Source of the DNA: a virus
Taxonomy: Duplodnaviria; Heunggongvirae; Uroviricota; Caudoviricetes
Length of the DNA: 40,045 nucleotides
IMG/VR virus record: IMGVR_UViG_2778261504_000023
Span: 1 to 40,045 of that record
Strand: one strand, 5' to 3'
Positions 4,967 through 36,897 of this stretch are shown here, piece after piece; positions within the stretch are counted from its first letter, which is position 1; each line of letters opens with the position of its first letter. The position numbers were made by a program, and so were the translations under genes. The notes below the pieces were generated by a model. It did not search any database, had not been told where the DNA came from, and saw nothing but the letters and a program-made list of their open reading frames with translations.

Positions 4967-5045
4967 TTACCTTTTTAGGTAATAATTATGCTTATTTGGT
5001 TTGGTGTCAATAGATATGAGTTAAAAAAAATTACCCGTAAGGTAA
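4967..5045. promoter_or_regulatory. Leftward operator/promoter region (OL-like) with two palindromic sites
   Basis: TTACCTTTTTAGGTAA at 4967..4982 and TTACCCGTAAGGTAA at 5031..5045, between repressor 3' end and start of leftward early operon. Confidence 0.6.
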
Positions 5046-5063
5046 TCTATCTGGCAATAAAAA

Positions 5064-5081
5064 AGCCGCCATGAGGCGGCT
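5064..5081 (-). terminator. Rho-independent terminator downstream of repressor gene (minus strand)
   Basis: Hairpin AGCCGCC-atgag-GCGGCT with run of A on plus strand (U-run on minus) at 5057..5063. Confidence 0.65.
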
Positions 5082-5102
5082 TACTTGCTGAAAACTATAG
5101 TT

Positions 5103-5687
5103 TTATTGTTTGCTTTTTTCGTTCTGGTTGATGACAAATTCAATGTAACTTTCGATCTTTGCTTTCTCTGTTTCAGGTAACAATGCGTAGCGCGAGCGGT
5201 CATAGTTGATAGTTGCAGGGTCGTGCGGGTGAATCAGTAATTCATAGCCGTGACGCCCGAATGCGGATGCAACATTCTCCAGGGTGGAAATGGAAACGCT
5301 GACCTCATTGTTTAACAGGCGGCTGATTGTCACCTGGGCTACGCCGGATGCGCGGTGAAGTTTTCCCTGTGTTGAAAGGTCTCGGCTTTCGCTCATCCAG
5401 CGTTCCAGGTTGTGAGCCGCCAGCTGGCCAATGTCGCTTGGGCCGACAGGCTGAAAACCTTCCTGAGAAAGCGAGCGATCGATATCAAGCCAGTTACGGG
5501 GTTTATTGGCGGCAGCTTCAATTTTTCGTGCAACCTGGTCGCCGATAACCTTCTTGCCAAGAGCCCAGCGGTTTACCAGATTTGCCTGAGTTCCAAGTTT
5601 TTCTGCCATCCGCGTCTGAACACCATTGAATTCACGGTCGATCAAGTCGTTGAGATTTTGCCTGCGGACGTCCTGGATACTTTTCAT
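5103..5687 (-). CDS. Prophage repressor, CI-like but lacking a recognisable S24 autocleavage domain (two HTH-like segments)
   Basis: 194 aa; HTH-like segments QTRMAEKLGTQANLVNRWALGKK and ASGVAQVTISRLLNNEVSVSISTL; divergent from cro-like gene with operator palindromes between; no GDSM/Ala-Gly-Ser-Lys cleavage motifs seen. Confidence 0.6.
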   Translation of the reverse strand: MKSIQDVRRQNLNDLIDREFNGVQTRMAEKLGTQANLVNRWALGKKVIGDQVARKIEAAANKPRNWLDIDRSLSQEGFQPVGPSDIGQLAAHNLERWMSESRDLSTQGKLHRASGVAQVTISRLLNNEVSVSISTLENVASAFGRHGYELLIHPHDPATINYDRSRYALLPETEKAKIESYIEFVINQNEKSKQ

Positions 5688-5742
5688 TTTCTGGAAAATC
5701 GCCTCATATATGAATCAGTAGATGATTCAATTTAAAGCAATA

Positions 5743-5805
5743 TTACCCAACAGGTAAATGCACCCCATAGGTAACTATCCTTGATTTTTGTTACCTTATG
5801 GGTGA
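5743..5805. promoter_or_regulatory. Rightward operator/promoter region (OR-like) with three palindromic sites overlapping putative PR
   Basis: TTACCCAACAGGTAA 5743..5757; GCACCCCATAGGTAA 5760..5774; TTACCTTATGGGTGA 5791..5805; putative -35 TTGATT 5781..5786 and -10 GAATAT 5804..5809 with 17-bp spacer. Confidence 0.6.
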
Positions 5806-5841
5806 ATATTTATTATCTGAAATAAATATCAGGAAATAGCT

Positions 5842-36312: not shown

Positions 36313-36319
36313 TAAAAAA

Positions 36320-36339
36320 GAGAGGGAAATATCCCTCTC
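36320..36339 (-). terminator. Hairpin terminator (effective mainly for minus strand) between tail fibre and gtr remnant
   Basis: GAGAGGG-aaatat-CCCTCTC; run of A on plus strand upstream (U-run on minus). Confidence 0.55.
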
Positions 36340-36344
36340 TTACA

Positions 36345-36452
36345 TTAAATTACTTTATATGACTTCAATTCTTCGAATTCACGTACCGTTTTATAAAAAA
36401 TTGGTATCGCTTCTTCTTCATTGAAGACAGGAACTACAAGAGATATCTTCAT
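36345..36452 (-). pseudogene. gtrB: Truncated gtrB (bactoprenol glucosyltransferase) remnant, 35 codons
   Basis: [35 protein letters not shown] then stop; matches N-terminus of GtrB glycosyltransferases (recalled); ATG overlaps gtrA stop (ATGA). Confidence 0.6.
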
Positions 36453-36811
36453 TTCGCATCCCTAAAGACAATGAACTTTGAATAGACGAAACCGCACACC
36501 AGGCTTATGGCGGAGAAGGTGACGAGAGTAACAAATGGTGGCAGACCGCACATGTCAGCAGCCCAGCCAACAACTGCGCTCATAGTGCCCATGAATCCAA
36601 CGTAAAGCATGTATTTCAGCGTAGTAGTAGAGGCATTGAACGTAAATTTCGCGTTAGCGTAAAAACTGAACGATACAGCTATGACAAAACCAGCAAAGTT
36701 AGCAAGTACTTGATTTGTATGTATTACGTAAATACAGAAAGCAAACACAACCCAGTGTATGAGCGTGTTTAACACTCCGATTGACATGTATTTAGTGAAC
36801 AGATGAAGCAC
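36449..36811 (-). CDS. gtrA: GtrA-family flippase (bactoprenol-linked glucose translocase)
   Basis: 120 aa from GTG 36811; (M)[28 protein letters not shown]...[22 protein letters not shown]...[11 protein letters not shown] matches GtrA. Confidence 0.8.
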
Positions 36812-36839
36812 TTTTTCCAGAAAAAATAAAAACAAATAT

Positions 36840-36897
36840 ATCACCCTTTGGGTAATTTCGTTAAGAGCTATCTGAGTTTATTTAAACCATATATGGT
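36840..36897 (+). promoter_or_regulatory. Putative lysis-operon promoter module: variant palindrome ACACCCTTTGGGTAA plus CATATATGGTTT
   Basis: Half-site variant CACC at 36840..36854; TATATGG motif at 36888..36894. Confidence 0.4.

Follow-up and report, generated by a model that had tools for sequence, protein, structure and literature searches.

The dispersed palindrome ATTACC-nnWnn-GGTAAT as the probable operator of the Rep repressor in an E. coli prophage of the genus Uetakevirus

What is the meaning of a short palindrome that recurs at the borders of transcription units along the whole genome of a temperate phage, and which protein reads it? The question is raised by the 40,045-nucleotide stretch of DNA analysed in this study (IMG/VR virus record IMGVR_UViG_2778261504_000023, positions 1 to 40,045; hereafter the window), an E. 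coli prophage of the genus Uetakevirus (epsilon15/phiV10-like). A sequence-only reading had noticed there a dispersed 15-bp palindrome, TTACC-N5-GGTAA, and had assigned it to one phage-encoded dimeric DNA-binding protein, either the repressor encoded at 5103..5687 or a cro-like protein, with a late activator as the alternative. From the comparisons described below we conclude that the palindrome, in the extended form ATTACC-nnWnn-GGTAAT, is very probably the operator of the 5103..5687 product, Rep, acting as a genome-wide prophage repressor.

A pattern search of the window for TTACCNNNNNGGTAA gave eight perfect copies, starting at 5031, 5743, 8050, 11626, 14786, 32153, 33186 and 33566, against a mean of 0.03 in 100 dinucleotide-preserving shuffles, none of which reached eight. 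TTACC with a 5-bp spacer was the most frequent 5-N-5 palindrome of the window (eight copies, with three for the runner-up), and conserved flanks widen the motif to ATTACC-nnWnn-GGTAAT. The eight perfect copies of the sequence-only reading, and its single copy with a 6-bp spacer (4967-4982), were all recovered; its opinion that they are not chance (0.04 expected by its own estimate) held in the search against shuffled controls that it had proposed, the motif standing far above the shuffles. Its coordinates needed two small corrections, 32152 to 32153 and the start of the last near-variant to 36841, and among its near-variants GCACC at 5760, GGTGA at 5791 and GCACC at 6128 were present as described, the last one reading TCACC and not ACACC. 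The one-mismatch search added 5791, 8112, 11644 and 36841, so that two sites were new, 8112-8126 (TTACCTCAGGAGTAA) and a doubtful 11644-11658; the latter was rejected as a one-mismatch operator, as it overlaps the terS ribosome-binding site and more likely represents the terS ribosome-binding region. Conserved copies with one or two mismatches then number five (5760, 5791, 6128, 8112 and 36841). Because the near-variants at 5760, 5791, 6128 and 36841 have orthologs in five further Uetakevirus genomes, we regard them as real sites and not as chance matches. The single copy with a 4-bp spacer, ATTACC-N4-GGTAAT at 9958-9971, lies within the open reading frame 9632..10039; as many such matches as in the window were found in 5 of the 100 shuffles, and this copy is probably due to chance.

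With respect to location, 10 of the 15 listed sites with 5- or 6-bp spacers were strictly intergenic against a mechanical, greedy set of open reading frames, which over-calls genes (92% of the window being coding by this set). With the start codons of the epsilon15 and Tyrion annotations, all of these sites are non-coding, as the sequence-only reading had supposed, and the non-coding sites fall at transcription-unit boundaries.

The GenBank/RefSeq record of epsilon15 (AY150271.2) carries seven 'protein_bind' features with the bound moiety 'repressor' and the note 'lysogeny', at 12..27, 2931..2947, 19895..19911, 32479..32494, 32554..32570, 32616..32632 and 35906..35922, each of which is (A)TTACC-N5-GGTAAT. 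Three of them precede terS, the head operon and the tail fibre gene, three lie left of the repressor gene and one lies past the replication genes, and the window operators occupy places orthologous to them. Our scan of epsilon15 gave 11 perfect copies. Of the four that carry no annotation, two fall in the right operator (OR), another precedes the lysis genes, and the last pairs with the post-replication site. For a wider comparison we used six Uetakevirus genomes, the window, phiV10, Tyrion, epsilon15, SPC32H and BUCT711, with hosts across E. coli, Enterobacter, Salmonella and Klebsiella; TTACC-N5-GGTAA was the top 5-N-5 palindrome in all six, with 8-11 copies at orthologous positions. No description of these operators was found among the accessible full-text papers; a 17-bp consensus of this form is said to have been given by Kropinski in 2007.

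The protein encoded at 5103..5687 matches the Rep repressor of phage SPC32H (PDB 5D50 chain A) with an E value of 3.5e-42, query residues 1-190 being aligned on chain residues 2-197, and its domains are arranged in the order of an N-terminal DNA-binding domain (approximately amino acids 1-70), a middle HTH_3-like domain and a C-terminal domain for tetramerisation and Ant binding. The family scan of Rep returned only families of the HTH_3/HTH_26 type, with no Peptidase_S24. The window Rep shares 99.5% identity with the phiV10 and ZX5 repressors and 43% overall with Rep of epsilon15/SPC32H, where the N-terminal domain is conserved; across the six genomes Rep is 43-78% identical overall, the N-terminal domain again being strongly conserved. 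SPC32H Rep binds palindromic sites as a tetramer, in which the DNA-binding domains pair across different dimers, and is disassembled by the tetrameric antirepressor Ant (PMC9638917). It consists of an N-terminal DNA-binding, a middle dimerisation and a p53-like 'TetDloop' tetramerisation domain, with the two middle-domain pairs approximately 100 Å apart, and its repression mechanism was described in that structural paper of 2023 as 'not extensively characterised' (PMC9986798). The proposal of a phage-encoded binder can be kept, its dimeric state being replaced by the tetramer of the SPC32H Rep family (PMC9638917, PMC9986798). Overexpression of the ZX5 repressor abolished free phage, lowered the transcripts of holin and endolysin by over 99.9% and blocked lytic transcription (PMC9782041).

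New supporting evidence was obtained from covariation of the palindrome with the N-terminal domain of Rep. The cI protein of the Pseudomonas siphophage PseuP_224 shares with Rep only the N-terminal ~70 residues (39-41% identity), fused to an S24 peptidase, and exactly three copies of TTACC-N4-GGTAA are present in its 43-kb genome (10906, 11768 and 11807), all flanking the repressor gene. We examined 19 further Pseudomonas-type viral loci (53-96% identical to the PseuP_224 domain, GC content 55-61%), and the repressors of these Pseudomonas relatives carry GNSMEP, as in the S24 type. Each locus has two to three copies of TTACC-N4-GGTAA at fixed positions round the repressor gene and none elsewhere: in 18 of the 19 loci the sites are at -73 and -34 relative to the start codon, 17 of these 18 have a further site approximately 90 bp past the stop codon (the remaining one being a truncated locus), and the most divergent locus carries a single upstream and a single downstream site. 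The half-sites are identical and the spacer sequences vary. In locus coordinates (L088-L106) these sites lie near 2428, 2467 and 3330. No homologue of the cro-like or gp49-like protein of the window was detected in the Pseudomonas-type loci. From this covariation we infer that the half-site follows the N-terminal domain of Rep and that the spacer length follows the oligomerisation module; the spacing rule of the TTACC-reading domain would be five nucleotides for the tetrameric Rep type and four for the S24-type repressors.

This covariation bears on the possibility that another regulator, such as the cro-like protein (5842..6072) or a late activator of the gp49-like type (11192..11539), is the main or an additional binder, with the sites of the late units, at approximately -60 to -80, serving as activator sites. 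Both families are labelled as transcription regulators, Cro proteins often share the operators of the repressor, and the distances of -59 to -79 from the guessed start sites would resemble the positions of class I activators. The TTACC half-site, however, accompanies the Rep N-terminal domain in Pseudomonas phages lacking homologues of both proteins, the same sites make up a classic tripartite OR and a paired OL, and the start sites behind the activator positions are themselves guesses. As to the gp49-like protein, Pectobacterium phage ZF40 encodes a 68%-identical protein and has no related motif, a comparison that concerned only the second palindrome described below. We consider a main or additional role of another regulator improbable. 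The late activator of the sequence-only reading gained no support as the binder, since TTACC tracks the Rep N-terminal domain, and its first choice, one phage repressor, most likely that of 5103..5687, with dispersed operators, agrees with both the epsilon15 annotation and the covariation of the half-site.

Perfect sites were also counted in approximately 130 Uetakevirus-type loci (75 of E. coli type and 57 of Klebsiella/Salmonella type), and many spacer variants were observed at orthologous perfect sites; as only perfect sites were counted, the result indicates spacer variability and site retention and is not an independent measure of half-site conservation. A variable spacer between fixed half-sites is taken to indicate a protein-binding site rather than an RNA stem. 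The palindromes are indeed inverted repeats within transcribed leaders, which might suggest RNA hairpins acting as terminators or processing sites, and the phage has an MT-A70 methyltransferase, which might suggest targets of methylation or restriction. Against both stand the weakness of the predicted hairpins (-3.3 to -4.8 kcal/mol, without a T-tract), the fixed half-sites with no compensatory change and with a varying loop in all the perfect sites, the opposite of what an RNA stem would show, and the restriction of the sites to non-coding DNA, where they track the Rep N-terminal domain across unrelated phages. The hairpin reading was ruled out by the energy and the absence of compensatory change, and as a whole this explanation is hardly credible.

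At the leftward promoter PL (TTGACA(5010)-17-AATTAT(4982), minus strand, score 10/12), the proximal operator with the 6-bp spacer, TTACCTTTTTAGGTAA (TTACC-TTTTTA-GGTAA, 4967..4982), runs from the last base of the -10 hexamer over the start-site region. The distal operator (5031..5045) lies, on the minus strand, between the rep terminator (5082-5063), which it closely follows, and the -35 hexamer, which it closely precedes. The pair is spaced by 64 bp in the window, 62 bp in phiV10, Tyrion, epsilon15 and SPC32H, and 63 bp in BUCT711. The proximal site has an ortholog with a 5-bp spacer in the five other genomes, and none of approximately 80 related E. coli-type viral loci tabulated has the 6-bp form at this position, the spacer there being 5 bp; in the window, the 6-bp form could reflect either weakening of the operator or a faulty assembly. 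In Klebsiella-type relatives, variants with a 4-bp spacer occur as third PL operators.

On the other side of rep, three sites form a tripartite OR that is conserved in all six genomes. The perfect OR1 (5743..5757), closest to rep and itself conserved in the six genomes, overlaps with TTTACC-17-TTAAAT, a putative leftward promoter of rep that was read by eye; OR2 (GCACCCCATAGGTAA, 5760..5774) follows at 17 bp and is degenerate in the window, its position being a perfect TTACC-N5-GGTAA in epsilon15, SPC32H and BUCT711; and OR3 (TTACCTTATGGGTGA, 5791..5805), including TTGATTTTT, which is invariant across the six genomes, is within the spacer of the rightward promoter PR (TTGATT 5781-5786, 17 bp, GAATAT 5804-5809). 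Beyond the cro-like gene, the post-cro operator GCACCTCAAAGGTAA (6128..6142) is located 15 bp past the cro terminator (6094-6113), and its ortholog in phiV10 and Tyrion reads GTACC..GGTAA.

A second operator pair is found past the replication operon. The distal member (8050..8064), just past the terminator of this operon, is centred at approximately -61 from the start of the post-replication promoter, TTGATT(8084)-17-TTTAAT(8112), of which TATTGA and AAT are invariant in the six genomes, and the proximal member TTACCTCAGGAGTAA (8112..8126) overlaps the end of the -10 hexamer, the start site and also the DUF1064 ribosome-binding site. The spacing of the two is exactly 62 bp in all six genomes. 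At the first gene of two units (8112-8129 and 4947-4960), the right half-site GGTAA also serves as, or looks like, a ribosome-binding site (GAGGTAA / AGGAGTAA). Since 62 bp corresponds to approximately six helical turns, and since Rep possesses two pairs of DNA-binding domains and a tetramerisation domain of the looping type, one tetramer may hold both operators of a pair. The geometry suggests simple occlusion wherever an operator covers the core promoter, namely at PR, PL, the post-replication promoter and the Bro/Ant promoter described below, and less strongly at the phrog_1349 gene, where the promoter was identified by eye. PL and the post-replication promoter have in addition a second operator ~62 bp upstream, which would allow one tetramer to clamp the promoter in a small loop.

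The late units are different in this respect. The terS operator (11626..11640), orthologous to the epsilon15 'repressor' site 12..27, is 20 bp past a terminator (11589-11606). The head-operon operator (14786..14800), orthologous to epsilon15 2931..2947, forms the left edge of a ~110-bp block kept in the six genomes, within which ATATGTGGTTAAATTGGTAATAATTTAA is identical in all six phages, and the DNA upstream of the operator is unalignable. A further site (33566..33580, orthologous to epsilon15 19895..19911) lies between the divergent ant and tail-spike genes, beside the ant promoter and a LexA box, and the variant TCACCCTTTGGGTAA (36841..36855) between a gtrA-like gene and the lysis cassette reads TCACC also in phiV10, Tyrion and SPC32H, and is a perfect TTACC in epsilon15 at 24704. 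A leftward gtrA promoter is predicted here (TTAACG-18-TATATT with TG), in the spacer of which the operator at 36841 would sit; this is an odd position for a gene that is expected to be on in the lysogen. At terS, head, tail spike and lysis no sigma-70 promoter scoring at least 9/12 was found to overlap the operator, only weak candidates being noticed by hand. The statement of the sequence-only reading that an operator exists at every promoter thus applies to PL, PR, the post-replication promoter, the leftward Bro/Ant promoter and, with less weight, phrog_1349, and does not extend to these four units.

One explanation for sites without an overlapping promoter is that the dispersed operators outside the immunity region act as insulators or roadblocks past terminators, as the stoperators of phage L5 do, the late promoters being silent for want of an early activator. 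Four operators are indeed located 15-20 bp past an intrinsic terminator, those after cro, after the replication genes, before terS and, on the minus strand, the PL-distal one ending at 5045 (the terminator-operator stretches being 6094-6142, 8017-8064, 11589-11640 and 5031-5082), and the late modules have neither a -35 hexamer nor a promoter over the operator. The sites are, however, palindromic and without orientation bias, the operator covers the start site at PL, the post-replication promoter and the Bro/Ant promoter, and the distance between operator and conserved block steps by whole helical turns, suggesting contact between bound proteins. As an account of the sites outside the immunity region we hold roadblocking to be possible and yet rather unlikely.

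This stepwise distance was revealed by a second dispersed palindrome, with the consensus (A)ACCATA|T(A/G)TGGTT. A perfect copy, AACCATATATGGTT, is at 36885..36898, copies with two mismatches are at 6148-6161, 14839-14852 and 33607-33620, and only the right half (from 8100) is present at 8093-8106. With up to three mismatches there were eight hits against 1.44 expected, and no shuffle reached eight. The element is always downstream of an operator, the distance from the operator start to T.TGGTT being quantised at 27, 48-51 or 60 bp and kept in the six genomes; from centre to centre, this amounts to 19.5 bp (adjacent), approximately 42 bp (40.5-43.5) and 52.5 bp, the latter two corresponding to four and five helical turns. 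Seven nucleotides past TGGTT stands a -10-like hexamer, TAATAA for head, TAATAG for tail spike and TATGAT for lysis, without a -35 hexamer, and if the conserved blocks are late promoters, the Rep operators would be at approximately -60 to -80. Comparison by hand with the consensus sequences of IHF, DnaA, CRP and sigma-54 gave no convincing match to the second palindrome. The gp49-like regulator was considered as its binder and set aside, the link being rejected or unsupported, because ZF40 with its 68%-identical homologue has no copy of the motif. A tentative interpretation, which we rate as doubtful, is that a high-affinity Rep operator and the second palindrome over an activator-type late promoter form a composite late element, through which the Rep tetramer, or Rep together with a second regulator, micro-loops each late unit. 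If true, this would be an undescribed element providing a single-repressor control of all units at once in Uetakevirus, and would explain what use is made of a tetramer whose two pairs of DNA-binding domains stand apart.

Several points weigh against assigning the whole set of sites to direct repression by Rep. At terS, head, tail spike and lysis no sigma-70 promoter overlaps the operator, which makes direct repression there less certain; the expression data for ZX5 could represent indirect effects; the cro-like protein could share the palindrome sites, including those round rep; and the 6-bp spacer of the PL-proximal operator should weaken binding. Taken with the evidence above, they leave Rep as the very probable reader of ATTACC-nnWnn-GGTAAT, the mode of its action at the late units being the least certain.

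The antirepressor genes of the prophage appear to be under the same control. A small gene (33232..33489, minus strand) encodes an antirepressor of 85 amino acids, ant (phrog_450, E 9e-48; aligned by eye to SPC32H Ant), and the SPC32H ant gene is annotated at the equivalent position, beside the tail-spike gene. Just upstream is a perfect LexA box, CTGTATATTTATACAG (33511..33526), with the Rep operator 33566 approximately 40 bp beyond it, and this layout is common to SPC32H, epsilon15, phiV10 and Tyrion. Downstream of ant, a second leftward promoter, TTGAAA(33228)-17-TATATT(33200), scoring 10/12, has its start site within the Bro/Ant operator (33186..33200), the -10 hexamer directly abutting the operator (TATATT|TACC). 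It is followed on the minus strand by an isrK-like RNA (33073-33149; Rfam 74.7 bits, gathering score 50), a C4 antisense RNA (32968-33054; 79.5 bits, gathering score 45) and a second antirepressor gene (32233..33072), the product of which combines Bro-N with a C-terminal Ant (phrog_450) domain of approximately 80 residues, the real start of Bro-N/Ant being probably downstream of the C4 RNA. As judged from these matches, the prophage appears to have two antirepressors bearing the same Rep-binding module, and the operator at 33186 with the isrK-like RNA, the C4 RNA and Bro-N/Ant has the make-up of an immI-like module of phage P1. This operator is also the centre of a perfect inverted repeat with 12-bp arms, CAAGAGGAGTGC / GCACTCCTCTTG (33165-33218), which in phiV10 runs into the operator with arms of ~19 bp, and which may serve to terminate ant or to extend the binding site.

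These observations can be combined into a model of the lysogenic state and its termination. In the lysogen, Rep would occupy approximately 14 operators, its N-terminal helix-turn-helix reading the TTACC half-site, the middle domain dimerising and the C-terminal domain tetramerising. At terS, head, tail spike and lysis, where the operator follows a terminator and/or is 40-70 bp upstream of a late-promoter-like block, Rep probably loops to a weaker proximal element or roadblocks read-through. Rep would also repress the antirepressors that counter it: on ant it would act together with LexA, and the isrK/C4/Bro-Ant operon would be repressed as well. Upon induction by the route described for SPC32H, DNA damage would lead to LexA cleavage, synthesis of Ant and disassembly of the Rep tetramer, and all the units would be released simultaneously. 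One repressor appears to lock the early, late, lysis, accessory and antirepressor units directly, without RecA cleavage, with antirepressors controlling it at two levels, LexA/Ant and C4 RNA/Bro-Ant.

The surrounding gene organization is that of a Uetakevirus, as supported by protein-family scans of the window proteins, and mosaic blocks of ~96% identity are shared with phiv142-3, PAS61, phiV10, ZX5 and TL-2011b. The scans placed an integrase gene at 1..1251 and identified genes for an MT-A70 methylase and for PerC-like and AlpA-like proteins, rep (5103..5687, minus strand, full-length match to SPC32H Rep), the divergent cro-like gene (5842..6072, plus strand, 76 amino acids; phrog_35 'transcriptional repressor', E 5.6e-13), DnaT/P-type replication genes, the DUF1064 gene from 8130, the gp49-like regulator gene (11192..11539), and the head and tail genes. 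The probable start codon of terS is the ATG at 11661. A tRNA gene (14390-14463, minus strand; Rfam, 73.3 bits) lies between the terminase and head operons, and SPC32H has tRNA-Arg at the equivalent place. The leftward phrog_1349 gene (31461..32093) is preceded by an operator (32153..32167) that is present only in the window among the six genomes, and that is abutted by a weak promoter read by eye, TGTACA-18-TACTAT|TACC. The tail-spike gene (33685..36312) is followed by the leftward gtrA-like gene for O-antigen conversion (36449-36844, minus strand), with the lysis cassette rightward beyond. The attP core ATTGAGTGGGAATGATT is absent from the window.

The arrangement is already known in its outline, being annotated for the type phage of the genus, with the repressor structure solved and the induction mechanism published; what is of remaining value here is how Rep acts on the late units, the operator pairs at 62 bp, the helically phased second palindrome and the spacing rule of N5 and N4. 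For annotation, ATTACC-N5-GGTAAT marks the Rep regulon and the borders of transcription units in any Uetakevirus prophage, and the TTACC half-site can locate the operators of any repressor with a Rep-type N-terminal domain, whether tetrameric with N5 or of the S24 type with N4.

How is the system related to the known types of prophage control? With lambda it shares the divergent rep and cro genes, three operators overlapping two promoters, the paired PL sites and probably cooperative or looped binding. It differs from lambda in that Rep lacks the S24 autocleavage module, induction goes through an antirepressor, and the operators reach the late and accessory units, 9 of the 14 sites being outside the immunity region; no Q-like protein was found among approximately 30 window proteins scanned, in a search that was not exhaustive. 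With the gp71 repressor of mycobacteriophage L5, to which the sequence-only reading had likened the arrangement, it shares many sites outside the immunity region, some of them so placed that they could block read-through. The stoperators of L5 are asymmetric 13-mers, approximately 30 in number, orientation-biased and located inside operons, whereas the window has ~14 symmetric sites, only at unit boundaries and with no high-scoring site inside a long operon. The window system is not of the L5 stoperator type.

The analogy with P1, drawn also by the sequence-only reading, turned out to be closer than supposed, as it includes a repressor-controlled module of C4 RNA and antirepressor. As with C1 of P1, one repressor has scattered operators at separate operons (14 sites from 4967 to 36855 in the window), and as in immI (c4-icd-ant), an operator-controlled promoter is followed by a C4 antisense RNA and then by the antirepressor. 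In P1, C1 binds as a monomer to asymmetric operators of 17 bp, while the sites of the window are palindromes for an unrelated helix-turn-helix tetramer without homology to C1. Because of its symmetric operators and unrelated repressor, the window system works like the P1 C1 regulon and is not a member of it.

The cI system of the PseuP_224 type has a homologous N-terminal domain (39-41%) and identical TTACC/GGTAA half-sites, and differs in its 4-bp spacer, in having only three sites, all flanking the repressor gene, and in its LexA-like autocleavage C-terminus. The closest relationship is with epsilon15/SPC32H: the repressor is homologous (5D50), the operator ATTACC-N5-GGTAAT is found at matching positions, which include the PL pair, the tripartite OR, the post-replication pair, terS, the head operon and the ant/tail-spike region, and ant is accompanied by the LexA box. 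The window differs in the degenerate OR2 and OR3 and in the 6-bp spacer of the PL-proximal operator, and has as its own extras the operator downstream of ant, for isrK/C4/Bro-Ant, and that before the phrog_1349 gene. With every defining feature that can be tested in sequence found in the window, the system is, on the evidence of the genome, a member of the epsilon15/SPC32H Rep-Ant family.

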